This document shows, piece after piece, positions 1 through 22,000 of a DNA stretch of 64,000 nt. Below the pieces are notes generated by a model. The model was not told the origin of the DNA and searched no databases. It worked only from the letters and a program-made list of their open reading frames with translations. The first letter of the stretch is position 1. Every line of letters starts with the position of its first letter. A program made the position numbers and the translations under genes. The stretch is from Bacteroidia bacterium (GTDB lineage: Bacteria; Bacteroidota; Bacteroidia; J057; JAIXKT01): contig JAIXKT010000001.1 of the NCBI GenBank assembly GCA_026932145.1, positions 45,786 through 109,785 of the forward strand, in the 5' to 3' direction.

Positions 1-222
1 ATCATTGCCCAAAAACAAGACTTTGTGGGGCTGAGATATTACAACCCTCCCGGAGGGGTTAAATCTTGCCTAAATACCAAAATAGCTTGCTGCAACATTA
101 TGATAACGTACCAAAATCCACAAAAACAGCCTGTTACTGAAAAATTACACACAGATAACCGCTGTGCATTTGAAATCCTAACGGATGATATTCAAACACA
201 CCAGATAGATATTGAGGTTTAA
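1..222 (+). CDS. 3' end of an unidentified CDS that enters from upstream of the window
   Basis: Frame 1 is open from nt 1 to the TAA at 220-222. A strong hairpin plus T-tract follows at 254-312. I recognise no family motif in the 73 aa. Confidence 0.35.
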   Translation: MIAQKQDFVGLRYYNPPGGVKSCLNTKIACCNIMITYQNPQKQPVTEKLHTDNRCAFEILTDDIQTHQIDIEV

Positions 223-253
223 GTGTAGCTGTTTTTTTGAAATTACTTCTAAA

Positions 254-312
254 CCACAATGGCTCAATAGTTTAAATACCAAACTATTGAGCTATTGTGG
301 CTTTTGTTTTTC
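254..312 (+). terminator. Intrinsic terminator-like hairpin between convergent genes
   Basis: A 20-nt arm CCACAATGGCTCAATAGTTT (254-273) pairs with AAACTATTGAGCTATTGTGG (281-300), with one G.U pair. The loop is 7 nt and a T-rich run CTTTTGTTTTTCTT follows. Confidence 0.6.
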
Positions 313-319
313 TTGTCTT

Positions 320-961
320 TTATTTTTTTCCTAAATATTGGGCAACGCTTTCCATTGTTTCTTTGATTGCTTCTGCACCTTCTTCCCAATTTGCTGGGCA
401 AACTTCTCCGTATTGCTCATAATGCTGTAATGCTGCAACGATTCTCAATGCTTCATCAACACTTCTGCCTAACGGTAAATCGTTTACTAACTGGTGGCGC
501 ACAACTCCTTGCTTATCAATTAGAAATAATCCACGATATGAAATCGGCTTACCTTCAAAGGTTAAACTTTCGTGCCCGTCATCATCATAATCAACTTTGT
601 ATTCGCCGGCCAATACGTCATAATCGCTCGAAATAGTTTTTGAAAGATCTGATACAAGCGGAATATTAACGCCGGCAATACCCCCTTGATTCCGAGGAGT
701 ATTTACCCAAGCGTAGTGCGTAAATTTTGAATCTACAGAAACACCAATTAACTGAACGTTCTTTTCTGCAAACTTAGCTGCTGCATCACCAAAAGCAATA
801 ACTTCTGTGGGACACACAAAAGTAAAGTCTAATGGCCAAAAGAATAACACTACATATTTTTTGCCAATAAATTGTGACAAAGTAAAATTTTCTACAAACT
901 GGCCATCTACTACCGCAGAGGCAGAAAAATCAGGAGCTTTTTTTCCTACTAATACTGACAT
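320..961 (-). CDS. ahpC: Typical 2-Cys peroxiredoxin (AhpC/Prx1 type)
   Basis: Peroxidatic Cys lies in DFTFVCPTE and resolving Cys in GEVCPANW. The fold appears full length at 213 aa. Confidence 0.9.
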   Translation of the reverse strand: MSVLVGKKAPDFSASAVVDGQFVENFTLSQFIGKKYVVLFFWPLDFTFVCPTEVIAFGDAAAKFAEKNVQLIGVSVDSKFTHYAWVNTPRNQGGIAGVNIPLVSDLSKTISSDYDVLAGEYKVDYDDDGHESLTFEGKPISYRGLFLIDKQGVVRHQLVNDLPLGRSVDEALRIVAALQHYEQYGEVCPANWEEGAEAIKETMESVAQYLGKK

Positions 962-1199
962 ATAATTTGTTTATATTGACTCCAACAAACCCACCCCCAA
1001 AATAGTTCATAGTAAACAAATAGATTGCTGATTTCAAAGGATTAAGAGCTTAATAGCTACTTGTCGGCTTATTTTTGCATACTTTTGCTTCCGAATGATG
1101 ATGGTTTTTTATTTTTACGATTACTTCAAAAATAACTTCAAACTTCGTTTTTTTACTAACGACGAGTATTTTATTAAACCATAGCCCAAACTACAAGAG

Positions 1200-1526
1200 A
1201 TGTATTGGATTATTTTAGTTGTAGCGGGGTTATTTGAAGCACTTTTTGCCTTTTGTTTAGGAAAAGCTAAAGAAACGTTTGGGCAAGAAATGTATTGGTG
1301 GTATGTGGGTTTTTCTGTATCTCTAACTATCAGTATGGGGCTTTTGATGAAAGCTACGCAGGCGTTACCGATTGGAACAGCTTATTCAATCTGGACGGGA
1401 ATAGGAGCAGTTGGAACCGTTTTAATCGGTATTTTTGTATTTAAAGAGCCGGCAACCTTCTGGCGGATTTTTTTTCTGACTACCTTGATTGCTTCTATTG
1501 TTGGGCTAAAGAGTGTATCTCCCTAA
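1200..1526 (+). CDS. sugE: SMR-family small multidrug/guanidinium exporter (SugE/Gdx-like)
   Basis: 108 aa with 4 predicted TM segments. The conserved membrane Glu is present in AGLFEALFAF, and the PIGTAYSIWTGIGAVG motif is typical of SMR proteins. Confidence 0.85.
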   Translation: MYWIILVVAGLFEALFAFCLGKAKETFGQEMYWWYVGFSVSLTISMGLLMKATQALPIGTAYSIWTGIGAVGTVLIGIFVFKEPATFWRIFFLTTLIASIVGLKSVSP

Positions 1527-1553
1527 AAAAACATCTCATAAGAAATCCTTAAA

Positions 1554-3410
1554 TCATTGATTATTAGGAATAATAGGTAGATGTAATTGACTTTGGTAGT
1601 TAGGGCCGTGAAATATCCAGATTTTTTGAGGGGTAGGAGAGATGTTGTCAAAATGATCTTTATCGGCGGCAGCGATGGCAATACGGATTTTGCTGCCAGG
1701 CTGAAACTGATAAGATGTTGGTTGAAATTCAATAGCTATTTTTCTGGGCTGACCAGGGGTTAATAATTGTTTGGTTTCCGAATTAAAAGATTGATTTAAG
1801 CCTGGAGTTTCATACATCGGCATTGTTTGCTCTACGGCAACAGAGGCTCTAACCAAACCCTCGGTAACATAAATTACGTTTCCATCTTTTGTAACTTCCT
1901 CTAAATAAGCATAGACACAGGCATCGGTTGTGTCTGAGGCTAAGTATAAATCCAACCAAGGATGTCCGGTAACTTCGGTATGTTGGTTTAAGGGTGCAGA
2001 ATCAAAAACCAAGCGTTTAGTATCGTTGGTAGCTTGGTCAGGATAGCCGGTTTGTCCATTTTTGTAAAGTAGGGTTAAGCTATTCCATCGGCTGGTATTT
2101 CCGCTTCCGGTGGTTGTATCTACTAAATAAACTGTTGAGCCGGGTTTCGCAGGTGGAACTGTACTTAATTGATTCTCAAAACAAAAATAACGTATCCATT
2201 GCGTTTGCGGTAATGGCCAAGTATTGGCAGATTGCCACTTTTCTGCTCCCATTGTGTAGTAATGAACTCTGGTATCTTGGTTGATTTTATTTTCACTTCC
2301 TTTCAGATAATAGTCAAAATACCGTAAACACTCGCCAAATAGGTCAAACTTAGTGGCTGGCTGGGTAGCTCTGGGGGAAATATTCAATTTGCCGCCGTGG
2401 TCCCAAGGGCCAATCAACAAATGCTGTGGGTTTTTGAAGTTCATAAATGCTTTAATAGCGGAGTTTGTAAGCCCTCCGTCAAACCAACCGCTGATGCAGT
2501 ACATCGTTGTTTTTGAATCCGATATTTCTCGGGTTCGTTGGTGGGCACTATAATCATCAATAGTTGACCCCCAAGAACTTTTTGAATTTCGGAACTCAAT
2601 AGCTTCATCAGCGATGTTGAAATTTTTGTTGTGTTTCGCCACATTTTGGAGTAGGGTTGTACGTTTTTTATCTCCCATTACCGGTTTGATGCCTTTAACG
2701 GCCATTTTGGCTTTTTTCCCAAATACGGCGAAACGGTTGTGGTCAAATTCACGTGTTGTGAGTCCCCAAACATCTACAAATCTTCCGTGCCGGATTCCGC
2801 CCGGGGCGGAAATATCTGCATATAGGTCAAAAATAGCATTCCGTGGAATTACTACTTTAACGGCTTCATGGCGTATTGAGGATAAAAGCATTGCCGTTGT
2901 ACCTACATAAGAAACGCCGGTAGAGCCTACTTTTCCATTTGACCACGGCTGAGATATGATGGAATCTACAACGGTGTACATATCAGCGACTTCTTGTGGG
3001 CTAAACTCCATTTCTCGGCTGCCGTCACTTGCTCCCGAACCTCGTGTATCTACTACAACAACTGCATAACCTCTTGAAACAAAGTAAGTTATTTCATCTA
3101 ACGAAATACTGGTGGTTGCGTGTTTTTTGATTATCCGAAATACCCGTTTGATTTCCAAAGATCTCACATAACGTGTTTGGTATAAAATAGTTGGTAGTTT
3201 TTCTCCGGTATTTTTTTTAGGTAAATAAATATCTACTGCTAAACGAAGCCCATCTTTCATTGGCCAGTACATAGATTTGTACTGATATTTTGAAGAAACT
3301 TTATAGGCTTGCTGCCCATAAGCTACGGGAAAAGTTTGGGATTTAGCTAAATGGATAAAAACAAAACTGATTATCAATAAATTAAAGATTAATTTTTGAT
3401 ATTTTTTCAT
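1554..3410 (-). CDS. CocE/NonD-family serine hydrolase (X-Pro dipeptidyl-peptidase S15-like), secreted
   Basis: Signal peptide present. VVVVDTRGSGASDG and the nucleophile elbow GSTGVSYVG are present, followed by the long C-terminal beta-domain typical of CocE/NonD. Confidence 0.75.
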   Translation of the reverse strand: MKKYQKLIFNLLIISFVFIHLAKSQTFPVAYGQQAYKVSSKYQYKSMYWPMKDGLRLAVDIYLPKKNTGEKLPTILYQTRYVRSLEIKRVFRIIKKHATTSISLDEITYFVSRGYAVVVVDTRGSGASDGSREMEFSPQEVADMYTVVDSIISQPWSNGKVGSTGVSYVGTTAMLLSSIRHEAVKVVIPRNAIFDLYADISAPGGIRHGRFVDVWGLTTREFDHNRFAVFGKKAKMAVKGIKPVMGDKKRTTLLQNVAKHNKNFNIADEAIEFRNSKSSWGSTIDDYSAHQRTREISDSKTTMYCISGWFDGGLTNSAIKAFMNFKNPQHLLIGPWDHGGKLNISPRATQPATKFDLFGECLRYFDYYLKGSENKINQDTRVHYYTMGAEKWQSANTWPLPQTQWIRYFCFENQLSTVPPAKPGSTVYLVDTTTGSGNTSRWNSLTLLYKNGQTGYPDQATNDTKRLVFDSAPLNQHTEVTGHPWLDLYLASDTTDACVYAYLEEVTKDGNVIYVTEGLVRASVAVEQTMPMYETPGLNQSFNSETKQLLTPGQPRKIAIEFQPTSYQFQPGSKIRIAIAAADKDHFDNISPTPQKIWIFHGPNYQSQLHLPIIPNNQ

Positions 3411-4204
3411 GATTTTTGAGGGAGTTTATTTTTTTGTGAGCGATAGATTAACCAAAATCCGATGATTATCAGTGGGATACTCAATATTTGCCCCATATTC
3501 ATTGGTAAGTTGTCTTCAAAAGAGACTTGGTTTTCTTTTATGGTTTCCCAAAGTATTCTGAGGCCAAAAATCCAGACAAGAAATATTCCGAAAGACAATC
3601 CGGCGGGTAGGTTGTTGGTATGTTTCCAGTAAAGTTTGTAGAGTATTCCGAAGAGAATTAGACAAGTGATTGCTTCATAAAGTTGGGCTGGGTGTCTGGG
3701 GAGTTCGTCAATACGGGCAAAAATAAAAGCCCAAGGCATATCGGTTGGTTTTCCGATGATTTCAGAATTCATCAGATTCCCTAAGCGGATAAAGCAACCG
3801 GCTAAGGCAACGGTAATGACAATTCTGTCTGCTATCCAAACAAAGGATTGATCTGGAAATTTTTTGGAATAAAGAAAGAGAGACGTAAGGATACCGATTG
3901 CGGCTCCGTGGCTGGCAAGGCCGCCTTCCCAAACATACAAAATCCGGATTGGGTCTAAAAGATAGACTTCCGGCTCATAAAACAGGCAGTGCCCTAAGCG
4001 AGCACCCACAATAGTGCCGATGAGCATGTGTAGGGTTAAGGTATCCAAGTTAGAATCCGGTTTTCCTTCTTGCCGCATAATGCGCAGCATGATTCCGTGC
4101 CCAATCAAAAAACCCAAAGCAAAGAGCAGCCCGTACCACCGTAGGTGAACCGGCCCTAAGGAAACAATTTCAGGATCTACGTTCCAAAAAATCGCCGCTA
4201 TCAT
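3407..4204 (-). CDS. lgt: Prolipoprotein diacylglyceryl transferase
   Basis: LRWYGLLFALGFLIG and GGLASHGAAIG motifs in a polytopic membrane protein. It overlaps the downstream hydrolase gene by 4 nt. Confidence 0.9.
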   Translation of the reverse strand: MIAAIFWNVDPEIVSLGPVHLRWYGLLFALGFLIGHGIMLRIMRQEGKPDSNLDTLTLHMLIGTIVGARLGHCLFYEPEVYLLDPIRILYVWEGGLASHGAAIGILTSLFLYSKKFPDQSFVWIADRIVITVALAGCFIRLGNLMNSEIIGKPTDMPWAFIFARIDELPRHPAQLYEAITCLILFGILYKLYWKHTNNLPAGLSFGIFLVWIFGLRILWETIKENQVSFEDNLPMNMGQILSIPLIIIGFWLIYRSQKNKLPQKS

Positions 4205-4797: not shown

Positions 4798-5358
4798 TTA
4801 GAACCCACCTGAAAGTACTTTGTTTGGAAACCCTAAAATTGTCGTGCTACCGTCTGCGTTAATTGTTATTTCTGTGTAATTGTTGTTTTCAATATCGTAG
4901 TCTGCGTAACGGTCTGTCAAAAAATGGATTTCTTGGTTTGTTGAGCCAATCCATTGATGATTCATTGTCCGCTTTGTTCTGTCGTAACGCCCTGTAATGA
5001 GAATGTCTAAGTTGTCAAGTATTGATGTCTTAATCTTTTCTGTTATTTCTGTTATTTCGTAACCAGTGAAAAGCATTGTGCTTAGTCCAAGTTTTCTACA
5101 TTCAATAAGCAATTCAGAAACTTCGTCAAACTGGTTTAATGGTTCACCACCCAACAAAGTTATTCCGTCAATAAGTTCTTTTTCGTTTTCAATTTTACGT
5201 AGTAAGTCTTGAACGGATAAAATGATTTTGTCCTCAAAAGCCCACATTTCAGTATTCCAGCAACCTTTGCAACGAATAGAACAGCCTTGCACCCAAATTA
5301 CAAAACGGCAATTTGGTCCATAAATAAAACTGTGTTCTTCTATGTGTGCAATGTTCAT
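4798..5358 (-). CDS. NrdG-like radical SAM activating enzyme (4Fe-4S single-cluster type), last gene of the island operon
   Basis: YGPNCRFVIWVQGCSIRCKGCWN carries a CX3CX2C cluster motif (about nt 5260-5283) with an NrdG-type context. A GGEPL SAM-binding motif is present. At only 186 aa there is no SPASM/twitch extension. Confidence 0.75.
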   Translation of the reverse strand: MNIAHIEEHSFIYGPNCRFVIWVQGCSIRCKGCWNTEMWAFEDKIILSVQDLLRKIENEKELIDGITLLGGEPLNQFDEVSELLIECRKLGLSTMLFTGYEITEITEKIKTSILDNLDILITGRYDRTKRTMNHQWIGSTNQEIHFLTDRYADYDIENNNYTEITINADGSTTILGFPNKVLSGGF

Positions 5359-5359
5359 T

Positions 5360-5803
5360 TTAGTAAGTGTTTCTAACCAAAACCAACTTGATTTTTCCTT
5401 TTATGTTTTCTTCTTTTACGGAATAACCTTGTTCTTTGGCTCGTTCAATGATTGTCGTTCTTTGCTTATCAATAAACGCTAAACGTTCCTGTTCTAATCG
5501 CTTTCTTTCTTCTTCCAAACGTAAACGTTCAGTCTCTTTAAGTTTGTTTTGATAGATAACGTTATATTGCTTTTCAACTGTTCTAATAAAATCCGCTTGA
5601 TTTCTGTCCGTATGCGAATAAGCAAAAAGAGCATATCTACCGAAATTGTCTTTTTGAAATTCTTGAAAACCTAAACGTACATCTTTTCTGTTTGTAACTA
5701 CTTTATTTCCTTCTACACGAAAGCCACAATCAACTGATTCTAAAGCTTTACATAAACATTCAAGGTCAATGAAAGGTGTTGCTGTTTTAATTACTGCACT
5801 CAT
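5360..5803 (-). CDS. DUF1257 (Ycf35-like) family protein with a charged coiled-coil insert
   Basis: The N-terminus MSAVIKTATPFIDLECLCKALESVDCGF and the later FIRTVEKQYNVIY fit my recollection of the DUF1257 consensus. There is an ERLRLEEERKRLEQER helix. The start overlaps the upstream gene by 4 nt. Confidence 0.5.
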   Translation of the reverse strand: MSAVIKTATPFIDLECLCKALESVDCGFRVEGNKVVTNRKDVRLGFQEFQKDNFGRYALFAYSHTDRNQADFIRTVEKQYNVIYQNKLKETERLRLEEERKRLEQERLAFIDKQRTTIIERAKEQGYSVKEENIKGKIKLVLVRNTY

Positions 5804-6006
5804 TTTTTCTTGATTTCAATTTTGTTTTGACTTTTCAATTCGTTTGCCTGATAAAATTCATCTGTCTTGGTAATTGAATCCAAATCGGCTAAATCACCTA
5901 ACAGTTTTTGTAATTCATCAATGCATATTTTGCCTTTAATGCCTTCGGTTGAAGCATTTATTTTCCCATTTTCGTCAATGGTTACTACAATTCTTTGTTC
6001 TGCCAT
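5800..6006 (-). CDS. DUF2997-like small protein (68 aa)
   Basis: The pattern IVVTIDENGKINASTEGIKGKICIDELQKLLGDL...TDEFY fits my recollection of DUF2997 (i.v.i..dG.v...v.G..G..C.....le..lG...t.eyy). Confidence 0.5.
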   Translation of the reverse strand: MAEQRIVVTIDENGKINASTEGIKGKICIDELQKLLGDLADLDSITKTDEFYQANELKSQNKIEIKKK

Positions 6007-6011
6007 TTTCG

Positions 6012-7925
6012 TTAGTTTTTAATTGCACATAAATTTGCTTTTAAGCGTTCTGCTTCTTTTTTTCCCTGTTCGTATTCTTCCCAATTTTGTATTGCCAAAA
6101 ATTGTTGGCTGTTTACTTGAAATAATTTTCCGATTGTCGGCAACTGTTGTAAATCAGGCATTTGAATGAATTGTGATTTTCCTGCATTATTCTGTTGGGA
6201 GCTTTTGTCTCCAACAATTTCACTTAATGAAGACAAATTAGATTGAGAGACTTGCTTATTCTTTTCCTTTTCTTTGCTTTCGATTTGGTTTTTGAAAGCG
6301 TTAATTTGTCTTTCAACCCCGCTTATTTCATCTACTATTTTAGATAAGAAAAGTGATTTGACTTTTTCGTCGCAATCTCTAATCGAACTCTCCAACACTG
6401 ACGTAGATTCAGATGAAATAGAAGCATTATGAATTGAATTTAGTTTATCAAGGATTTTCTTTGATGATTCAACTTCTTCAAGATTTTTATTGTTTTTTCT
6501 TGCTTTCTGTTGCAAACCGGCTTTAAATTTATTCAAGTCTCTGGCATTTATTATATGCTCCGCACAAAAGTCATTGAGTTTTTCTTGCTTTTCTTGTTCA
6601 AAAGCATCTTTTAATGAGTTCAACTCCGCAGTTTTTTCAGATTTAATTCGTTCAAATTCCGTTTTTTGTGCCTCCTTTTCCTGCTTCAATTTCAATAAAT
6701 CAAGATTTTTCCCTTCTTTCTCAGAAATATCAGACTTTAATCTTTCAATTTCTTCATCAAGTTTCGCTTTACGGTCTTCGGTCTCTATTTCGCCAATTTC
6801 ATTTTGAACTTGTGCATTGATTTCATTGATACGGTTGATTTTCTCTTTCAATTTCGCTTCAGCTTGATTAGCAAAATCAGTTTGTTTCAAATCGTCAATT
6901 TCATTTTTCAATGCACCAAAAACATTTTTCTTACCTAAAAAGAAACGTGAAATTGCTTTTGACAAGTTAGTTTCTTTCTTTTCAGCTTCTTGTATTTTGT
7001 TTACAATAGAATCCAAAGCCTTTATGATTTCTTCGGTTTTCTTTTTCCACCTTTCGTAAAGCGCGTTTTCATTGGCTTGTTCAGGCAAATAAAATGGTGT
7101 GTTTTGCCATTTGTATTCAATGCTTACTGAAACTCCATCGTCATCAAAATTTGGTTCTTTGTTTTCAAATTCACTTTTCGGCAACAAACTTTCTAGAACG
7201 ATATCGCCTAAATCGTTTGTTGTGTTTGCTTTTATCTGAATTGGAATTTGTGTTTCCTTGTTCAACGAAATAATTTGTTTGTCTGATAATTCGCTTCGTT
7301 TTGCTATTTCTGAAAAGTCAAATAATGTTCCGTAAACAAAATCTTTTCCGCCAAAGGCGTTTATGTCGTGAAAAACATCAAGCGGCTTTGAAGTTATATC
7401 GCCTTTCTTTCCTTTTTCAATCACTTCTTTTTTGGCTGTTTCCCAAAATTGATAGCAGAAATGACGAAACAATTCTTTCGTTTCTTTGGTGTCCAAACTT
7501 CTTGAAATGTGTTGCGAAACGGCAATACTTTGTTCTGTGAGTTGTCCTGTAAAAAATATTCCTTGCGGTTTATCAGAATTTGGATTTACCAAAACAAACG
7601 AACCTTTATTTCTTATTTCATAACGTATCAAACAAATTTCGTTCAACAAATCTAATTCTTGCGAATACTCATTGACAAGAATATAAAAGCGAACTTTCAA
7701 ATTTTGAGCAATGTCAAAAATCTGTTTTATCAAACCTTTATCAGTCAAGGCTTCTGTTTGTATGCAAACAATTCCTTCCTGTGCAGATTGCAAGGCTTTC
7801 GCTATTTCGTTTTTGTGATTTTGATTTGCTGAAACATTTAATTTTTGTCGCCAAAAATTCTGCAACAATTCATTGCTGTAATCAACGGTTTTATTTTTTT
7901 GTATGGATTGTATTTTAGTTGCCAT
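6012..7925 (-). CDS. 637-aa protein: globular N-terminal domain (~290 aa), ~300-aa K/E-rich coiled coil, small C-terminal domain
   Basis: Residues ~290-600 are heptad-like and K/E/Q/N-rich (for example EAEKKETNLSKAISRF...KLKEKINRINEINAQVQNEIGEIETEDRKAKLDEEIERLKSDISEKEGK). The N-domain has an alternating beta-alpha pattern (VRFYILVNEY...RNKGSFVLVNP) that loosely resembles a PLD-like fold without the HxK histidine. Confidence 0.6.
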   Translation of the reverse strand: MATKIQSIQKNKTVDYSNELLQNFWRQKLNVSANQNHKNEIAKALQSAQEGIVCIQTEALTDKGLIKQIFDIAQNLKVRFYILVNEYSQELDLLNEICLIRYEIRNKGSFVLVNPNSDKPQGIFFTGQLTEQSIAVSQHISRSLDTKETKELFRHFCYQFWETAKKEVIEKGKKGDITSKPLDVFHDINAFGGKDFVYGTLFDFSEIAKRSELSDKQIISLNKETQIPIQIKANTTNDLGDIVLESLLPKSEFENKEPNFDDDGVSVSIEYKWQNTPFYLPEQANENALYERWKKKTEEIIKALDSIVNKIQEAEKKETNLSKAISRFFLGKKNVFGALKNEIDDLKQTDFANQAEAKLKEKINRINEINAQVQNEIGEIETEDRKAKLDEEIERLKSDISEKEGKNLDLLKLKQEKEAQKTEFERIKSEKTAELNSLKDAFEQEKQEKLNDFCAEHIINARDLNKFKAGLQQKARKNNKNLEEVESSKKILDKLNSIHNASISSESTSVLESSIRDCDEKVKSLFLSKIVDEISGVERQINAFKNQIESKEKEKNKQVSQSNLSSLSEIVGDKSSQQNNAGKSQFIQMPDLQQLPTIGKLFQVNSQQFLAIQNWEEYEQGKKEAERLKANLCAIKN

Positions 7926-13609: not shown

Positions 13610-14028
13610 GGATGCGTTCTATAAATCCCCATTTTTTGAGATCTTGTATGTGTCGTTTTATTGTTGCTGTGGAGCAAACTGTTTCTTGAGCAAATGATTT
13701 TCATTAAGCAATAAGTTTGAAAGAAAATGGATCAAAAATTCTTCTGTTTGATGAATACAACAGTTAGCTCACCCAATATTTCAGCGATGCGTGCTGAAAC
13801 TTTATCGGCTTCTTCGGTACGGTTTTCGTTTGTTTTAGATAGGTGCTGTTGATAGTAACTATCAATACGTTTTTTTACTTCGTCAATGGTGATGTTACCT
13901 TCAATGTTTTGTTTGGCAGTTTTAATCAAGTAGTCTGACGGTTTTAGGCCGATAGCTATTTTCCAAACTTTTACTTTTTCTGCTTTGCTTGGTTCGTTTT
14001 GTCTTAAATATTCATCAAAGTTTTCCAT
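13610..14028 (-). pseudogene. Truncated, stop-interrupted fic-family gene (N-terminal region only)
   Basis: MENFDEYLRQNEPSKAEKVKVWKIAIGL..SDYLIKTAKQNIEGNITIDEVKKRIDSYY...RTEEADKVSARIAEILGE matches the N-terminal region of a widespread Bacteroidota/Proteobacteria Fic family. The frame hits a stop at 13732. It then continues in frame to ...THTRSQKMGIYRTHPI*, reminiscent of IHxxLFxGIY. The HPFxxGNGR core is absent, and the remnant ends 14 nt before the AAA+ start codon. Confidence 0.6.
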
Positions 14029-14133
14029 TATGGTAGTTAAAAATGGTTTTTTAAAATACTCCTCAAAACGAAAGCAAAGAATGACTAACTATCCGGCTTT
14101 ATCTAAAAATCCTGATATTGTGTAGTCAAGATT

Positions 14134-15015
14134 TTAGTTGGACGTAGCAAATGCAGGGCGAAACACAAAAAATCCGGTAATGGTTGTTCTGTTTCCTAAG
14201 TAGCTGCAAAAGTCTTCTTTAAAGACCACTTTTTTCTTGAGCATGGAGGCATGCGAAAATTTTAGTTCGTCATTATCACGACTGATAAAGCCGCAATGAG
14301 ATACGTCTAAGCCGGCAACGTTGGTAGCTAAGGCTATGATGTCTCCGGTTTTAGCTACTGCGGCATAGCGGTCGTATTCATGTATCGGATAATAAAACTT
14401 TTTGCGGGCGTTTAGCCGTTCTTCTTGTTTGCTGATTCTATCCCAATTTGTGAATCCTCTGAATTTCTTTTTGTTACTGGAAATGTAGTGGATTTTTTTG
14501 TCAAATATAAAGCCATTTTGTGCGGCAACATCATAGAGTAGTCCGGCATCTTGCATTTGGTATAGTTGGTCTGTAAAGTAGGTGATGCGGTCTTCCCACA
14601 CACAATTTACTCCATTATAGTAGCGGAAGTTGTCTAAATAAGAAACGAATTGGCCGAGCAGCAGTTCTTCATCGGATTGTGCCTTAGGATGAGTGGCTAA
14701 CCAACGTTTGGTTAGCAAAATAGCCCAAGCTGTTTCGATAAAGGTTACGCAGTTAAGTTCATGGATGTTGATCAATGTTTTGCCCGGTTTTAACCCCCAT
14801 GCACCGGCACCGTATTTTTTCCCGATAAAATTATACAGAATACCTTCTATATCATACTCAAAGTCAAAGCAATCACCGTTTTCACGGATGATATTCAACA
14901 CAGCGTCTTTGGAGTCTCCTACGACAAGGCAACGCTCTAACAGCTCGTCAGAATTTGCCTGAATGGGATTGAATAATAAGCCAAAGCACCCTAACAATAA
15001 AAACTTCCACTTCAT
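14134..15015 (-). CDS. DUF1460-like putative amidase / cell-wall hydrolase, secreted
   Basis: Signal peptide present. The INIHELNCVTFIETAWAILL segment fits my recollection of the DUF1460 N-terminal Cys motif. 293 aa. Confidence 0.5.
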   Translation of the reverse strand: MKWKFLLLGCFGLLFNPIQANSDELLERCLVVGDSKDAVLNIIRENGDCFDFEYDIEGILYNFIGKKYGAGAWGLKPGKTLINIHELNCVTFIETAWAILLTKRWLATHPKAQSDEELLLGQFVSYLDNFRYYNGVNCVWEDRITYFTDQLYQMQDAGLLYDVAAQNGFIFDKKIHYISSNKKKFRGFTNWDRISKQEERLNARKKFYYPIHEYDRYAAVAKTGDIIALATNVAGLDVSHCGFISRDNDELKFSHASMLKKKVVFKEDFCSYLGNRTTITGFFVFRPAFATSN

Positions 15016-15091
15016 AGATACCGATGTTTGTAGCTATTACGCAAAACTACGAATACTATGCCAAAGATTCAATAAAATGTGGGTTTTTTGT

Positions 15092-15123
15092 GGAAAAACT
15101 ATAATTAAGATAAGATTATAGTT
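15092..15123 (-). terminator. Weak AT-rich hairpin plus T-tract downstream of the TolC-like gene
   Basis: On the minus strand AACTATAAT-(9 nt)-ATTATAGTT is followed by TTTTTCC. The stem has only 2 G:C pairs. Confidence 0.3.
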
Positions 15124-15139
15124 TGGTTTTGTGAATTAT

Positions 15140-16480
15140 CTATTCTAATAGAAGTCCTTGTGCTTTGAGTAAGTCCACTTTGGCAATATTTACTTCTAAG
15201 AGTGCATTCAGATAATTGATTTCAGATTCTTTGCGGCTTGCATCTGCATTTACTATATCCAGAATCATGCCGGTGCCTTTGTCGTATTTTACTTTGGCTA
15301 AACGATAAACTTCTTGGGCGAGTTCTAAATTACGCTGCTGAATTTCTACACTGCGAATGCTGTTGTTGTAGGTAGTAACGGCGTTTTTGAGTTCTAACTG
15401 GACTGCCAGCGTAAAGTTTTGTTGGTCAAGTTCGTTCTTTTTTATAGCAACGTTGGCTTGTTCTACTCGGCTTTTACGCCTTAGTCCGTCAAAAATTGGT
15501 AAGGTAAGCCGAAAACCTACAACACCGGTAGCAAACCAATTTCTCTTAGTATCAAAATAAGAGAATTCATTTCGCATAGCTTGGGAGGAAATACTTCCAA
15601 AAAGGTATAGCGTAGGGACAAATCCGGCTACATGGCGCAATCTATCTAAATTATAGAGTTTATTTTGGATTTTAAGCAGTTGAAACTCTACTCGTTTTTC
15701 AATATCTACGGATGCCTCTACTAAGTTGAGCGCAGTTGGGGTTGTGGTTAAGGTGTCCGTCAAAACTAAATCTGATCCTAAATCCATCCCCATTTGAAAC
15801 TTTAGGAGGTTTAAACTCAACGTTACTAATTGCTTGGCTTTTTCGTATTCTGTTTTTAAGTTATTGATAGTAACTTCAATTCTATCTAAGTCAATTTTTT
15901 CAACGACCCCGCCTTGGTATAGTTTTTCAGTATCTATTTTTAGTTTTTGAAGTTTTTCTAAGTTTGCTTCAATCAGTCCTATTCGTTTTTGGTTCACTAA
16001 GCAGTTATAGTACGCTTTTTGGATAGCAGCTACGGTTTCTGTTTGGCTGCGTTCGGTAGCTTTTGAAAATAGATAAACGACATTACGAGCTGCCGCAAGC
16101 CCTACAAAGAAATCGCCGTCAAAAGCTAACTGGGTAAAATCAAGGCTGGCCGTTGTATTGTATTTAGTACCAAACTGAATGGGAATCATCGTTCCTTCAG
16201 GAGCCATAGGGTTGAAGATTTTGGCCGGAATTAGTGATGTGGGTAGCTGTACAAAATATTGAGAGTTAATCGTTGCATTAATTTGCGGTAAGCCAATGCC
16301 CATTATTTCTCGGGCAAAGTAGGTAACGCTATCCAGCGTTAAGCGAGCAGAACGTACTTCAGATTTGTTTTCCAAACCAAATTGAGTACATTCTTTGATA
16401 GAAAATTTGTGAGTCTGGCCAAATGCAGCATTTAATATTGTTGCTAAAATAATAGCAATACTTTTAGTTAGTGGTTTCAT
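15140..16480 (-). CDS. TolC-family outer-membrane efflux protein
   Basis: 446 aa with a signal peptide and two OEP-type coiled-coil/beta-barrel repeats. Its start overlaps the stop of the TetR gene. Confidence 0.8.
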   Translation of the reverse strand: MKPLTKSIAIILATILNAAFGQTHKFSIKECTQFGLENKSEVRSARLTLDSVTYFAREIMGIGLPQINATINSQYFVQLPTSLIPAKIFNPMAPEGTMIPIQFGTKYNTTASLDFTQLAFDGDFFVGLAAARNVVYLFSKATERSQTETVAAIQKAYYNCLVNQKRIGLIEANLEKLQKLKIDTEKLYQGGVVEKIDLDRIEVTINNLKTEYEKAKQLVTLSLNLLKFQMGMDLGSDLVLTDTLTTTPTALNLVEASVDIEKRVEFQLLKIQNKLYNLDRLRHVAGFVPTLYLFGSISSQAMRNEFSYFDTKRNWFATGVVGFRLTLPIFDGLRRKSRVEQANVAIKKNELDQQNFTLAVQLELKNAVTTYNNSIRSVEIQQRNLELAQEVYRLAKVKYDKGTGMILDIVNADASRKESEINYLNALLEVNIAKVDLLKAQGLLLE

Positions 16481-17084
16481 TTTTCCCTAATAACCGATGA
16501 TTTTGTTCAAAATATTTAACCCCTTTTGGGGTGCAAATTCCTCTTAAATACAATTCTATGAGTTGTAGATATACTTGACTTAGTGAGTATTTTTCTATTG
16601 GGAAAGTATCTTGATTTATTACTCCCAATGCTAAATTTAAGTATAGCCCGGTAACTATCTCTATGTGAATATCTTGCCGATAGTATCCTTGATCTATTCC
16701 GTTTTGTAGGTTTTGGAATGTATTTTCCCGTATAAAGTGGTCACGGTAGCCCTTTAGCTCGTCCCAAGCGGCTATATGATATTTTAATAAATCATAAATT
16801 AAATTTGGGTTAAATCCGGCTACTTGTTTTAAAATATGATTGTATAATAGCAGTAGTTGGTCAATGGGGTTTGGGTTTGTATTAACTATCTCTAAACCGA
16901 TGCAGCGCTCGTTATCAAAATAGGTTCGGGTAGCTTCCAATACCAGCGAATTTTTATCCGAAAAATACTGATATAAAGTTTTTTTGGAAATACCTAATTG
17001 TTCGGATAAATCATCCATAGAAACACTACGGATGCCAAACTTCATGAACATGAGCAAACTGCTGTGAAGGATTTTCTCTCTCAT
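16464..17084 (-). CDS. TetR/AcrR-family transcriptional regulator
   Basis: N-terminal HTH FGIRSVSMDDLSEQLGISKKTLYQYFSDK. I prefer the ATG at 17084 (MREKIL...) over the track's 14-codon extension. Confidence 0.8.
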   Translation of the reverse strand: MREKILHSSLLMFMKFGIRSVSMDDLSEQLGISKKTLYQYFSDKNSLVLEATRTYFDNERCIGLEIVNTNPNPIDQLLLLYNHILKQVAGFNPNLIYDLLKYHIAAWDELKGYRDHFIRENTFQNLQNGIDQGYYRQDIHIEIVTGLYLNLALGVINQDTFPIEKYSLSQVYLQLIELYLRGICTPKGVKYFEQNHRLLGKNETTN

Positions 17085-17307
17085 AATTAGAGTTAAAAAA
17101 ACTTTGGAAACGCAAAATAAGTTCAAAGTTTCCTTTAAAAAAAATCAGATGACTTAAAAAGGTTATTGCTGGTTTGTAAAATATTGATTAAAAGCTATTT
17201 TAGTTTTTAATTCTTTTTTAACGGACAAGTTTTCAACAATTGGCAAAGTTGCCCACAAAAAAAGCTATACTCAGCGTAATTGTGGATATTTGTACCTGCG
17301 TTTAATT

Positions 17308-18075
17308 ATGGAGACCCTCAAGCAGTACACCATTCAGTTACCTCAATTTGAAGGCCCCTTTGACTTATTGCTGTTTTTTATAGAGCGCGATGAATTAGAT
17401 ATTTATGATATTCCGATTAGCAAAATCACCCATGATTTTTTGGGTTATCTAAAACAGTTAGAAGAATCTAACTCCATAGAAGAGGCTTCAGAATTTATGG
17501 TAATGGCAGCAACCTTGATGAAAATTAAAGTTCAAACACTTTTACCAAGACCTAAGTTAAATGAAGAAGGGGAGACCATAGATCCGCGTTCTGATTTGGT
17601 TCATAGCTTGTTAGAGTATCAAAAAATAAAAAAACTGTCTGAGGAGTTAGAGCACTTAGCTACAATTCGGGCTACTTTACATGAGCGCGGGTTTACCCAA
17701 AATGAACTGAAATTATTAACGCAAGATAAATCTATTCAGGAAGAATGGTGCGGCTTAACACTTTTTACCTTAGCTGAATCATTCAAAAAATCATGGCAAC
17801 GGTTTGCACTTCGTGAAAATGCCCCCGCAAAACATATCGTCCAACCATATCCTTACCAATTAGAAACCGTTAAAACTGCCGTGATTAAACAAGTTTTTAT
17901 TCGTTCAAAAGCTCATTTTGAAGATATTATACTGGAATACCCCAATAAATTGTATGCAATATTTTGTTTTTTGGCAATCTTAGAACTTGTTCAGGAAGGA
18001 AAAATCGGATTATTATTAAGCGACGAACCCAATAAATTTTGGTTGATTGCCATAGAAACTATTGCTGCGGCATGA
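17308..18075 (+). CDS. scpA: Segregation and condensation protein A
   Basis: FEGPFDLLLFFIERDELDIYDIPISKIT is the canonical ScpA N-terminus. The ATG at 17308 is preferred over the TTG at 17290. Confidence 0.85.
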   Translation: METLKQYTIQLPQFEGPFDLLLFFIERDELDIYDIPISKITHDFLGYLKQLEESNSIEEASEFMVMAATLMKIKVQTLLPRPKLNEEGETIDPRSDLVHSLLEYQKIKKLSEELEHLATIRATLHERGFTQNELKLLTQDKSIQEEWCGLTLFTLAESFKKSWQRFALRENAPAKHIVQPYPYQLETVKTAVIKQVFIRSKAHFEDIILEYPNKLYAIFCFLAILELVQEGKIGLLLSDEPNKFWLIAIETIAAA

Positions 18076-18087
18076 TAGAACTCTATC

Positions 18088-18747
18088 TTAATGATAGATT
18101 TCTACCGGAATATACAAGGCTTTGGTAGTATCATTATTGAATGCGATAAAATATATTCCGGCTGGTAAATCGCCGATTTCAAGGTAACTTTTTCCCTGAA
18201 CCAATGGAATATAGCGAATGAATTGCCCAAAATAATTGTAAATAGCTACGGAATAGTTAGTTACGTCATTCTCTACCTGAAAAAACAGTTTATCGGAAGT
18301 TGGGTTTGGAAATACCGAAACAGTGTTATCCCAAGATAGATTTTGAGGTCTTTGGGTAGATTGTTGAACGGCAAAGATTATGGTATCGGATGCCCAACGA
18401 TCTAAGGTTAAGGAATCAAGTAAATCATAAATCAAGGTATATTGCCCAGAAGGAAGTTTTCCCAAAGAAAAAGTATCTTCTGATGTACAAATTACCGTCA
18501 AAGGCCCCAATAGATGAAATGCTTGCAGCCTAAACTCATTCATATTTAACTGGATAGTTTTAGCCGCTAAATTGCACCCTGAACTTGGAAATACTGACTG
18601 GACGATTAAATGTATGCTATCATTATCAGTAGGTTGTTCCGGTATCAATTTGGCGGTATTAATAACTCCCCACTGGGCATACAAAATGCTTGATTTTAAG
18701 CTGATTAGGAGTATTATCCATAATATTAAAGACTTTGGAGTGGGCAT
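18088..18747 (-). CDS. Secreted protein with a T9SS C-terminal sorting domain
   Basis: Signal peptide present. The C-terminus VFPNPTSDKLFFQV...LPAGIYFIAF...IYH is a type-A Por secretion tail. Confidence 0.7.
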   Translation of the reverse strand: MPTPKSLILWIILLISLKSSILYAQWGVINTAKLIPEQPTDNDSIHLIVQSVFPSSGCNLAAKTIQLNMNEFRLQAFHLLGPLTVICTSEDTFSLGKLPSGQYTLIYDLLDSLTLDRWASDTIIFAVQQSTQRPQNLSWDNTVSVFPNPTSDKLFFQVENDVTNYSVAIYNYFGQFIRYIPLVQGKSYLEIGDLPAGIYFIAFNNDTTKALYIPVEIYH

Positions 18748-18812
18748 ATTGAAAAAATATACAGATAACGGGTCAAAGATAATAATATTTTTTATTTTTG
18801 CGCAATCATTTT

Positions 18813-18886
18813 GGCGGGAGTAGCTCAGTTGGCAGAGCGTCAGCTTCCCAAGCTGAAGGTCGCGAGTTCGAGGCTCGTTTCCCGCT
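18813..18886 (+). tRNA. tRNA-Gly (anticodon CCC), no encoded CCA
   Basis: Hand-folded cloverleaf. The acceptor GCGGGAG pairs with TTCCCGC, the D arm is GCTC/GAGC, the anticodon loop is TTCCCAA, the T arm is GCGAG-TTCGAGG-CTCGT, and the discriminator is T. It is 74 nt because of one extra C in the 5' strand of the anticodon stem. Confidence 0.8.
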
Positions 18887-19044
18887 CTTCATAGAAATTG
18901 TTATTAAATTACGACAGGTACTTTAAAATAATTGGGATAGTAATATTTTCGTACCTTTTGCCGTCCGTTACGTACTTTTTTAAGTAAAACCAACTACATT
19001 GAATAAAAATTTTGCTAATTTTAGCGCAATTTTTATCTTTTTAG

Positions 19045-22000
19045 ATGTATAGACGGACGTTATTCGTGATTACTTTGCTTCTATGCCAAAGGATTGCTTA
19101 TAGTCAATGTGTTCCAATAAATTTGGTTTTACCGGATACTATTTGCACAAATACGGATGTTGTTTTTCAGCGGGTTACAGCGTCGAGTTATCATTGGGAT
19201 TTTTGCCCCGGTGATTTATCCGGTGTTCCGGTGTTGAATGCGGATATAGGTTCGAATGTTTCCCGTGGACTTGGCCTCGATATGGTTGTTGAGGGTGGCC
19301 AATATTACATTTTCACAACGGGTTATGATGGCACGTTAAAACGTTCCAATTTTGGTAATTCTCCAGAAAACACACCTACGGTTACGAACCTGACATTGAG
19401 TAAGACGCCTATTACTCCTTTTCAATATCAGCAGTTTAAAGTAAACAATAATTGGTATGGTTTGGCGACTTGTGCGGGTTCTTCACCTGCGGTTTATTCT
19501 TTTCCGAGCCTTACTTCGAATAGTGTTTCCGTTAGTTTTTTGGATACGATTCCGGCTGGTTGTACTGGATTAGCTACGTTAGTTGACCACGACACTGTAT
19601 TTGCTATTTTTTCACTCAATAACTATATGAGAGTGTATCGTTTGGATAATACGTTGAGTAATCCGGTACTTATTCAGACGTTTTATGGGGTATCGTCTAT
19701 TTCCCAGTTAGAGTTAGTTCGGGATTGTAATGGTATTGTGTTGTTTGGTGTGGGTAGTGGTGGCCTTACTCAGGTTGTTTTTGGTAACTCTTTATACAAT
19801 ACACCTGTTGTTACGGTTCATAATTTACCTGGGCTTAATAATCCTAATGGTTTAGCGCCTGTAGTAGATATGGGTCAGAAATATGTTTTTGTGTTGAATA
19901 CTGGCGGGCAAAATATAATGCAAGTATCTTTTCCGAGTGGTTTTGGCGGGTTACCGGGGGCTACTACTCAGTTAGCTCCGGCATTGCCGTCCGGGTTAAT
20001 GGCTCTTAATGCACTGCATGATAAAAGTCGTTGGTATTTATTTACGTATCCAGAGCAGCCGAATCCTACCGTCAAATTAAGCCGGTTGGTTTTTCCGGAA
20101 AATAACTGTAATACCTCTATATCATCACTTAACACCGCTATTCCTATTGGGCTGAACTATTCCGCTGCCGGGACTTATATTGTTGAGTTAAGTGCTTTTT
20201 ATTCCAATGGCAGTATGGTTTCTACAATAGACACTATCAATATAACGGCAACACCAGGCCATTTTGCGGATTTTACGGTATATAACACTTGCTTAGACTC
20301 TCAGGCTTCTTTTGTGTATTCACCGATTCGGGATATATGCGGTGGGATTTTGAATTATCAATGGGATTTTGGGGACGGCTTTCAATCAAATTTATCAAAT
20401 CCGGTACACTCATATTCGAGTATCGGATTTTATAATGTGAAGTTGGTTATTAATACAATCAGTGGGTATAGTGATAGTATAACGAAGCAAATTAAAGTAG
20501 GTCGTAAACCCGGTTCTAATTTTACGGCTCCATCAAGTTGTAGTTTTTTGCCTATTCAGTTTACGGACGGTTCTGTTTTTGGGGATACGGTAGCGCGCTG
20601 GTTATGGGATTTTGGGGACGGCCAGACCTCTACGAGCCAAAACCCTGTCCATACATACACACAGGCAGGTAGCTATCCTGTTTCATTAACACTTTATGGC
20701 AAAACAAGTTGTGATAGCACAATAACTAAAAACGTTGTTATTACGGGAGTAGATCCAAATTTTGTTTCAAATAATATTTGTTTAGGACAGACAACTCAAT
20801 TTACAGATAGCAGCAAGAATAATGGCCAGAGTATAGCAAAGTGGTTATGGGATTTTGGTACTGGTATTTCAGCCGATACATCTAATCTTCAAAACCCAAC
20901 GTTTCAATACAGCGCACCCGGCAACTATTCTGTTACATTACGCATTAGCACTACTACCGGCTGCAATAGTATGATAGTAAAAAATACTTTTGTTGCGCCA
21001 TTACCTGATGTTTCGCTTGTAGTTGATGGTGATTTGTGTTTGCCAAATGCAGTGCTCAAGGTAAAGAAAAATACCCCCATTTCTATTAGTACTTATTCTT
21101 GGAACTTTAATGGAGTGCAAATATTTGGTAATAACCCTACTTTAGCCGTAAATAATTTAAGTGCCGGAATATATCCATACTTTGTTACTATAACAAGCAC
21201 AGATGGCTGTCCAGTTATACTACATGATACACTAAGAGTAGGTGTTAGCACTGAATTGGTAGTTATGGATACCATTTGCGGTAATGCTCCCCTCACCTTA
21301 AATGTGCCTTTTGGGGGAAATACAACTATTTGGGATTTCTGTTCCGGAGATATCGCAAATATGCCAATACTCACCCAAGGTATTGCAACAAGCCCTAAAA
21401 ATGGCGGAGGTATCGTTTTGGTTGAACAGAATGGAAATTGGTTTGGATATTCTGTTTCTACCACCACAAGCTCAATTATTCGCTTTGATTTTGGAACAAA
21501 CTTAGGTAATAATTCTCCCATAACTACCGAAATCACAGTTACTGGAACTGCTATTACTAACCCATACACATTGCAAGCTGTTTCGGGAGACAGCGGCAAA
21601 ATTTATCTATTTATAGCCTCCAGAACTCCCGGTAAAGGTATTTTACGTGTTCGTCTTAATTCCGCAACGGATACTATTCCCGTTTGTGAAGCAATTTCAG
21701 GAACAACTGTCTATAGTGGCTTTTCAGGAGTTTCTGTAACTAAAGAAAAAGGAAGTTGGTTTTTATTAACTTATTACTATGGGTCAAACGAGTTGAACAT
21801 TTTTTCTTTGGGTAGTTCATTAGAATCTTCTGCTACATTTATTCAAAAATATACCACTAACTTTTCTACTGCTTCTGGCGGAATTACAACGGTTCAAGAA
21901 TGTGGAGCTACATACGTATTTGTATGCGGAGTAAATTCAAGCTCAGGATTACATCGGTTTACATTTAATTCGGGGCTGGCGGGTAGTGCCACTTTTACAT

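Follow-up and report, generated by a model that had tools for sequence, protein, structure and literature searches.

Organization of the seven-gene operon

We analysed a stretch of 64,000 nucleotides (nt) from a Bacteroidia bacterium (contig JAIXKT010000001.1, positions 45,786 to 109,785; referred to below as the window), with emphasis on an open reading frame (ORF) of 637 amino acids (aa) and on the operon to which it belongs. The first-pass annotation had placed this ORF at positions 6012–7925, and all of the residue strings that it quoted occur in the translation; the strand, however, is corrected here to minus, the plus strand of the same interval giving a translation full of stops and no ORF. 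The gene stands fourth among seven translationally coupled genes, all on the minus strand, which overlap or lie 1–5 nt apart and encode, in order, an AAA+ ATPase, an Upf1-like superfamily 1 (SF1) helicase, a 'middle' protein, the 637-aa protein itself (PPLD, the dead phospholipase D (PLD) and helical-arm protein), a DUF2997 protein, a 147-aa protein and an NrdG-like radical SAM protein (Table 1).

An exact match to the 637-aa protein is deposited as MCZ2355110.1, a 'hypothetical protein' of a Bacteroidia metagenome-assembled genome (MAG). A word-indexed search with residues 1–312 returned 33 homologues, mostly of 523–543 aa and 41–82% identity, all of them without annotation, and a profile of the N-terminal 296 residues recognised 361 cluster representatives at E ≤ 1e-3 and 180 at E ≤ 1e-10 among 1.84 billion proteins. 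These homologues and profile matches, together with the deposited identical protein and the strict synteny described below, indicate that the gene is real and not a chance ORF.

Table 1. Genes of the operon and features of the 637-aa protein (positions in the window).
Feature	Position	Strand	Basis or remarks
Gene 1, AAA+ ATPase, 518 aa	12040..13596	minus	PF00004 and AAA_lid_3; classical clade, CDC48/PAN/FtsH-like; Walker A/B intact; weak IetA match
Gene 2, Upf1-like SF1 helicase, 1040 aa	8916..12038	minus	AAA_11/AAA_12; PADLOC MkoA 3e-76, MkoC 6e-26
Gene 3, 'middle' protein, 334 aa	7915..8919	minus	homologous to the middle gene of HKD-active triads
Gene 4, dead PLD and helical-arm protein (PPLD), 637 aa	6012..7925	minus	whole ORF; ATG start, stop codon 6012-6014
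N-terminal beta-hairpin before the PLD lobe	7821..7925	minus	residues 1-35; AlphaFold2 strands 8-15 and 20-27; invariant N23, W25
Single PLD-fold lobe	7431..7820	minus	residues 36-165; Foldseek against PDB, profile matches to FAM83B and Nuc, sub-threshold Pfam SACK1
Degenerate HKD motif	7533..7607	minus	residues 107-131; hmmalign and MAFFT against HKD-bearing relatives, HDK column of Nuc
Beta-rich post-PLD domain	7062..7430	minus	residues 166-288; ends in invariant W273-x-N-x-P-x-Y-L-P; AlphaFold2
Helical arm	6240..7061	minus	residues 289-562; full-length AlphaFold2 model, heptad analysis, alignment
Conserved apex module FC...G/R-K-N-x-K-N	6477..6569	minus	residues 453-483; AlphaFold2 turn 475-481
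S/Q/N-rich disordered linker	6129..6239	minus	residues 563-599; pLDDT 25-31; ends in conserved LPxLPxxG
Conserved C-terminal beta-beta-alpha-beta unit, GKLFQV..FLAIQNWEEYEQGKKEAERLKANLCAIK	6015..6128	minus	residues 600-637; AlphaFold2 pLDDT ~90 over 600-634
Gene 5, DUF2997 protein, 68 aa	5800..6006	minus	Pfam PF11211, E 5.7e-7, above cut-off
Gene 6, 147-aa protein with charged central helix	5360..5803	minus	possibly DUF1257-like
Gene 7, NrdG-like radical SAM protein, 186 aa	4798..5358	minus	CxxxCxxC intact; Fer4_12 8e-32; NCBIfam NrdG 7.9e-33

A single PLD lobe without the canonical active site

The N-terminal domain, read as PLD-like in the first-pass annotation, is assigned to this superfamily by both structure prediction and sequence profiles. 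An AlphaFold2 model of residues 1–296, built with 16 family sequences (pLDDT (predicted local distance difference test) 81.6, predicted template modelling score (pTM) 0.73), reproduces the alternating strand/helix pattern over residues ~37–165. When this model was compared with the PDB by Foldseek, all 50 of the matches listed belonged to the PLD superfamily, including all 40 at E ≤ 1e-3; among them were human PLD1, Zucchini/PLD6, NucT, FAM83A/B, Nuc, the PLD-like domain of TrmBL2, PPK, SauUSI and BfiI, with E values of ~1e-5 and target-normalised TM scores of 0.6–0.69 for the single-lobe Nuc, NucT and Zucchini. From sequence alone, the profile of the lobe (A3) reached FAM83B (6.3e-7, the best match with a solved structure) and the Salmonella nuclease Nuc (0.008), and the Pfam domain SACK1 (PF07894, the pseudo-PLD domain of FAM83) was detected at E 0.0026 and 17.8 bits, below its gathering cut-off of 21.4.

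The string RNKGSFVLVN had been noted, with no His, at the place where HxK(x)4D is expected, and the alignments agree. Both hmmalign and an independent MAFFT alignment put K107-G108-S109-F-V-L-V-N114-P115 under H-x-K-x4-D-P and T126-G127-Q128 under T-A/S-N, with K107, S109 and N114 in the H, K and D columns of the relatives, and in the lobe profile the column of the K107 motif falls on the HDK of Nuc. The motif reads K107-G-S109-F-V-L-V-N114-P...G122...T-G-Q128-L-T-E, with the changes H->K, K->S, D->N and N->Q, and the catalytic HxK(x)4D(x)6GSxN motif is absent from the window protein when it is aligned to active relatives. The degeneration suspected earlier is confirmed, with the catalytic His and the catalytic Lys both absent, and the second PLD lobe is also lost. 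Specifically, the window subfamily has neither the second PLDc_2 stretch nor a segment of ~100 aa that, in family members of 650–890 aa, comes after the first lobe and ahead of the conserved block that follows; this segment is a degenerate second lobe, with weak PLDc_2/TrmB matches in P0129 and P0160.

Among the 150 best family representatives, seven (P0146, P0149, P0152, P0155, P0159, P0169 and P0171) keep H-[SAT]-K-x4-D-P ... T-[AS]-N, and all of these are short (455–514 aa) and coil-less. Pfam PLDc_2 matches twice in each of the four HKD-keeping relatives that were scanned, which are therefore ordinary two-lobed HKD enzymes; the family profile extends to such relatives of ~500 aa in which two HxK(x)4D motifs are intact. 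In every coil-bearing member examined, the motif Lys is replaced by S/T, A or another non-basic residue, and the residue at the His position varies (I, K, L, V). Replacement of the HKD residues and loss of the second lobe together indicate a single-lobed protein that is catalytically dead by the canonical PLD mechanism.

A protein of this kind could still be an enzyme, with a pocket rebuilt around the G-S/T and G-Q pairs (plus R101) for non-canonical phosphoryl transfer or hydrolysis, perhaps only when paired with another lobe; the partner could be the HDRY domain, resembling a single PLD-type lobe, that ends most middle proteins (see below). Such a role would fit the near-invariance of G108, S109, N114-P115-N116-S117, G127 and Q128 in the close subfamily, the retention of G-S/T across most of the wider family and the fact that some members keep the His. 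We nevertheless consider it improbable: the Lys of HxK is lost in all of the coil-bearing members examined and the His position varies among them, the closest match of solved structure is the pseudo-enzyme FAM83B, the middle protein of the window has no HDRY domain, and we know of no His-less enzyme in the PLD superfamily.

An inserted helical region that probably folds back as an arm

The remainder of the protein had been described as a long K/E/Q-rich heptad region of SMC length followed by a globule of ~60 aa. A full-length AlphaFold2 model (25 sequences, pLDDT 82.4) predicts helices at residues 289–320, 323–347, 356–474, 482–502 and 505–562, preceded by a beta-rich domain that the profile matches as a separate second stretch in distant family members. 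Heptad windows with z = 2–3 were found at residues 295–350, 351–390, 463–490 and 519–560, with register shifts, and residues 296–585 contain 36% E+K+Q, 38% charged residues and only 2.8% P+G. The predicted helices, the heptad windows and the low P+G content argue that the low-complexity region is helical and partly coiled-coil-like, not disordered; the linker 563–599 that follows it is predicted to be disordered. The base of the arm is conserved family-wide (SRFFLGKK at 326–333 and EIExEDRKAKLDEEI at 379–393) and its middle is variable. The C-terminal globule is likewise borne out and conserved, in that 139 of 180 family sequences are recognised by a profile of the final 49 residues, but its structured part (pLDDT ~90) comprises ~38 aa and not ~60.

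Helicity and heptads thus stand from the earlier description, whereas the implied simple C-terminal fusion does not: comparison with coil-less relatives indicates that the helices have been inserted between two conserved segments that lie side by side in those proteins. In the active relative P0146, W-T-N-L-P-P-K-L-P is followed after ~12 residues by LDIYKNGKNTYIVIQNKSQLEKGNKISTEMKAKLV, which matches the C-terminal GKLFQVNSQQFLAIQNWEEYEQGKKEAERLKANLC of the window protein, where 292 residues separate the two motifs. Across the family, the spacing between the post-PLD and C-terminal motifs ranges from 11 to 430 residues, with a median of 234. The two segments, contiguous in coil-less proteins, must stay together, and the inserted helices should therefore run out and back. 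In agreement with this, residues 241–296 in the models rise from pLDDT ~75 when only the N-terminal part is included to ~93 when the C-terminus is added, with new strands at 166–176.

The turn in the AlphaFold2 model (475–481, ARKNNKN) likewise coincides with a conserved Lys/Asn-rich apex module midway along the arm, FC-(~20)-G-x-K-N-K-x-K-N-P-E-E-A, that is common to P0034, P0038, P0041, P0047, P0048, P0056, P0070 and other distant members and is absent from the nearest homologues of 537–543 aa. The apparent 100-aa insertion relative to these nearest homologues is a retained apex module that they have lost. The stretches of arm before and after the apex vary in length together (for example, 129/64, 154/86 and 179/114; r = 0.55 with n = 23, or 0.83 without one outlier), which is only suggestive because the sequences are related. 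Arm-like matches in Foldseek were limited to antiparallel Smc fragments and helical hairpins (E 0.4–1.2), which would also fit a fold-back but are not significant. The arm is most likely folded back, with ~80–120 residues per strand and a length of ~12–17 nm, or about one third of that of SMC proteins. The SMC-length coiled coil proposed at first is disfavoured by the insertion topology and by the predicted turn at the conserved apex.

A head formed by N- and C-terminal segments, a probably antiparallel arm and a conserved tip recall the architecture of SMC, Rad50 and LmuB, and the protein could act as a DNA-engaging arm, or 'ruler', in which a dimer uses its heads and coiled-coil arms to clamp DNA, bridge it or gauge its length, with the ends of phage genomes or intermediates of replication as conceivable substrates, and signals to the ATPases. 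A PADLOC match to LmuB (E 1.8e-6) and a weak Foldseek likeness of the arm to antiparallel Smc coiled-coil fragments (E 0.4–1.2) point in this direction. The LmuB match, however, is confined to the low-complexity helical residues 294–577, and the matches to Smc fragments do not reach significance. The likeness is architectural only, since the arm has ~80–120 residues per strand against ~300, no hinge domain or CxxC zinc hook is found at its apex, and no ABC ATPase head, NTPase domain or P-loop was found in the window protein with Pfam. Moreover, some arms in the family are several times as long as others, which speaks against a ruler of set length. We regard this reading as unlikely.

Conservation and modular composition of the operon

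The order AAA+, helicase, middle protein, dead PLD, DUF2997, 147-aa protein and radical SAM was found in about 45 loci. In tblastn searches with the seven proteins, the same order appeared in every sufficiently long locus recovered with the target (L001–L004 and L011–L019), and it was also seen in 33 of the 35 informative metagenome loci recovered independently through the 147-aa protein, down to ~30% identity. Where hosts are named, most are Bacteroidota MAGs, with a single bin each of Spirochaetales and Christensenella in addition. The distribution is sparse and patchy, with 11 loci in 185,579 species genomes for the patterns used, and searches of viral contigs found no relatives. Among the seven genes, the best conserved is that of the AAA+ protein, which shows 67–92% identity where the dead PLD shows 30–66% and the middle protein 32–78%.

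Two simpler arrangements suggest how the operon is composed. The HKD-active relatives P0171 and P0152 are encoded in three-gene clusters of a helicase, a protein of ~380 aa and the PLD, from which the other four genes are absent; the triad helicase is 36% identical to that of the window (1e-145), and the middle proteins are homologous (2e-15). The triad helicase of L007, a locus that also carries CARF-like, PIN and SLFN/AlbA_2 genes, aligns only from residue ~223 of the window helicase, and the first ~220 residues may thus be specific to the seven-gene form. Conversely, L068:2854-5763 is a compact unit of an AAA+ protein (534 aa), DUF2997 (68 aa), a 146-aa protein and a radical SAM protein (195 aa), and this locus has no helicase, middle protein or PLD; the AAA+, DUF2997, 147-aa and radical SAM genes therefore form a module of their own. 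Taken together, the triads and the four-gene unit make the operon look like a helicase-middle-PLD triad nested inside an AAA+ ... DUF2997-147aa-rSAM unit (rSAM, radical SAM), with the PLD inactivated. P0133 (462 aa) is a dead PLD without the coil and follows a helicase and a middle protein, and a 285-aa Fer4_12/radical SAM gene (L021:4219-5076) lies directly upstream of the helicase in its cassette; this layout may represent an intermediate arrangement. P0160, a coil-bearing form taken up below, is a further intermediate. As a separate observation, L070 contains DUF2997-147aa-rSAM with no detectable AAA+ gene upstream.

Identical copies of one family protein (P0025) occur in differing flanks, with toxin-antitoxin and AAA_14/DUF4143 genes, and the guanine-plus-cytosine (GC) content of the cassette (0.33–0.36) is lower than that of its neighbours (0.38–0.41). 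The genes that flank the operon in the window include those of a peroxiredoxin, an SMR transporter, an S15 peptidase, Lgt, an AmiA-like amidase, a TolC-like OEP, TetR and ScpA, as well as a 1819-aa PKD-repeat protein that is a cargo of the type IX secretion system (T9SS); the T9SS sorting domains in flanking genes fit the assignment to Bacteroidota.

Proteins encoded next to the dead PLD

The N-terminal region of the AAA+ protein (~250 aa) has no family match; the protein may resemble the cyanobacterial or plastid Ycf46. An AAA+ of the CDC48/FtsH type might use the dead PLD as a client or latch, the hexamer engaging and unfolding the linker or the arm on activation and thereby freeing or activating other subunits. 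The intact Walker A/B motifs of this classical-clade AAA+, its conservation, the highest in the operon, and a disordered stretch of 37 aa, conserved and flanked on both sides by folded parts of the target, would all suit such a role. The argument is purely circumstantial, however, and the AAA+ also occurs with only DUF2997, the 147-aa protein and the radical SAM protein in L068, so that its primary client is probably within that four-gene module; we give the client role little credence.

In the helicase, the ~370-aa N-terminal region has no match in Pfam, NCBIfam or PADLOC. The middle protein possibly begins with a winged helix; the winged helix-turn-helix (wHTH) signals are weak, wHTH-PRTase_assc being matched in 3 of 11 members with a best E of 0.006. 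The middle protein of most cassettes has ~500 aa and bears an extra C-terminal domain of ~165 aa with the signature PxHDRY[LI][IV]...W..NS[IL]D (L001:8497-10011, L010:2233-3732, L011, L013–L017 and L022:1742-3361; PADLOC NsnC 4.4e-6). This HDRY domain is absent from the middle protein of the window (334 aa) and from those of L012, L018 and L006. It resembles a single PLD-type lobe with a His and might supply the dead PLD with the catalytic or partner lobe that it lacks.

The NrdG score of the radical SAM protein (113.6 bits) lies just below the NCBIfam cut-off of 126.1, and no glycyl-radical-type partner of this NrdG-like enzyme was seen. A DUF1257 match was obtained for one of ten members of the 147-aa family (Pfam, E 0.007), which makes the link of this protein to DUF1257 a weak one. 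The DUF2997, 147-aa and Fe-S enzyme genes (window 4798–6006) parallel a cyanobacterial cluster of duf2997, ycf35 (DUF1257) and the ferredoxin gene fed7 (PMC4284462).

Comparison with known systems

Mokosh combines a COG1112/Upf1-like helicase with a PLD nuclease that needs a functional active site for defence to occur, and in type I, made up of the helicase MkoA and the PLD nuclease MkoB, the helicase protein carries a Ser/Thr kinase domain (Millman et al. 2022). The first-pass annotation had heard an echo of this system in a helicase with a PLD-like partner. The echo holds insofar as an Upf1-like SF1 helicase adjoins a PLD-family protein, the window helicase matches PADLOC MkoA at 3e-76, the HKD-active triads are homologous and their PLD proteins weakly match MkoB (1.9e-7 to 4.5e-4). 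The operon is, however, one of seven genes and not of a helicase, an AAA+ protein and a PLD alone, as opposed to the two- or one-gene layout of Mokosh type I. In the window, the PLD active site is gone and the protein has no PADLOC MkoB match; no Ser/Thr kinase domain was found in the helicase with Pfam; and a separate middle protein, the AAA+, DUF2997, 147-aa and radical SAM proteins and the coiled-coil insertion are added. With these differences, the operon has the look of a remodelled relative of Mokosh, an anti-phage system.

In CoCoNuT systems, the UPF1-like CnuH is typically followed by CnuE, an elongated protein in which a wHTH domain is fused via coiled coils to effectors (PMC11090510); in type III-C, CnuE carries two PLD domains, and in several types inactivated nuclease domains are retained for binding (Bell et al., eLife 2024, PMC11090510). 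The window operon resembles type III-C in the succession of an UPF1-like helicase and one or more genes with a wHTH-like N-terminus (weakly supported here), a coiled coil and a PLD. It differs in that one gene encodes the wHTH-like part (again weakly supported) and another the PLD part, the latter has a single lobe and is dead, the coil follows the PLD instead of preceding it, and the partner ATPase is a classical PF00004 AAA+; moreover, neither McrB/McrC-type domains (CnuB/CnuC) nor an Hsp70-like CnuD were found among the seven genes.

The FAM83/SACK1 (DUF1669) proteins share with the window protein a PLD fold without catalytic residues, and FAM83A/B are among its top Foldseek matches. The dead PLD of FAM83 serves as a protein anchor and so sets a precedent for a scaffold of this kind. 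The FAM83 proteins are, however, eukaryotic, occur in an unrelated context and have no coiled-coil arm, and the window protein does not have their CK1-binding function.

Proposed role of the dead PLD protein

The account that we favour, with moderate confidence, is that the 637-aa protein descends from a two-lobed PLD nuclease, has lost catalysis and now serves as an adaptor or nucleic-acid-binding subunit of a likely defence operon. Its ancestor would have been the PLD effector of a triad of Upf1-like helicase, middle protein and PLD, similar to Mokosh and to CnuH/CnuE. The inserted helices would fold back as an antiparallel arm of ~12–17 nm with a conserved basic tip (475–481), and the C-terminal unit would complete the head domain. 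Single-lobe PLDs such as Nuc and Zucchini homodimerise, and by analogy the lobe of the window protein may do the same, giving a two-armed particle. The former active-site groove would be kept to bind nucleic acid or a partner and not to cleave, as suggested by the examples of FAM83, TrmB and the inactivated nuclease domains of defence systems. In this way the protein might physically couple a sensing module (helicase and middle protein) to the module of AAA+, DUF2997, 147-aa and radical SAM proteins, which would now supply the output activity. A scaffold or ruler role, as suggested in the first-pass annotation, is plausible.

Several observations weigh against parts of this account. Four coil-bearing members retain the His, as HG[ST/A], and the strong conservation of G108-S/T109 and G127-Q128 could reflect retained chemistry beyond mere binding. 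The full-length model has a pTM of only 0.49, with low confidence in the tip region 459–507, and the heptad periodicity of the arm is patchy. At L022, a coil-bearing dead PLD (P0160, 817 aa) is followed by an integrase gene instead of the DUF2997 and radical SAM genes, and coupling to that module is therefore not obligatory. As regards defence, the window flanks (1–4204 and 13732–24504) consist of housekeeping genes and form no recognisable defence island, and no PADLOC system model matches the whole cassette.

The most likely function of the operon is protection against phages or mobile elements. A defence role is suggested by the MkoA-like helicase, the sparse distribution, the variable flanks (toxin-antitoxin, integrase, CARF, PIN and SLFN genes) and the lower GC content of the cassette. 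The operon might instead be a housekeeping or stress module, concerned with RNA quality control or linked to redox processes, and the dead PLD would then be left over as a structural relic. The housekeeping flanks, the clustering of DUF2997 and DUF1257 proteins with a ferredoxin in cyanobacteria, the failure of any PADLOC system to match and the lack of relatives found on viral contigs are all in line with this. It is hard to reconcile with the sparse occurrence of the cassette, at 11 loci among 185,579 species genomes for the patterns used, and in varied contexts beside toxin-antitoxin, integrase, CARF, PIN and SLFN genes, with a helicase nearest to Mokosh MkoA, and with the much faster divergence of the dead PLD and the middle protein than of the AAA+, as expected of conflict genes. 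The strong motif conservation within the protein, in turn, argues against a relic, and we see little chance that this alternative is correct.

A bolder version of the defence reading, which we put forward only as a tentative and rather doubtful possibility, is that the operon encodes a previously unrecognised immune machine whose sensor, a Mokosh-like helicase, has abandoned its nuclease output and is instead connected through the dead-PLD arm protein with an unfoldase of the AAA+ class and with an NrdG-like radical SAM enzyme; defence would then proceed by radical chemistry or protein remodelling and not by nucleic-acid cleavage. Under the same doubtful scenario, the DUF2997 and DUF1257-like proteins would be cofactors or substrates.

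Implications for the protein family

We found no description of the seven-gene operon in the libraries or literature searched. The comparisons made here point to a PLD effector of the Mokosh/CnuHE type that has turned into a non-catalytic arm protein, a clear and datable case of a defence nuclease becoming a structural subunit: active two-lobed, dead coil-less (P0133) and dead coil-bearing forms are all extant, and the genes around each of them are informative. Two separable modules, helicase-middle-PLD and AAA+/DUF2997/147-aa/radical SAM, are united in the operon. If the operon has an immune function, it would tie sensing of the Upf1-like kind to a radical SAM or AAA+ output, a combination unseen in described systems, and would provide the first functional context for DUF2997 and DUF1257-like proteins.

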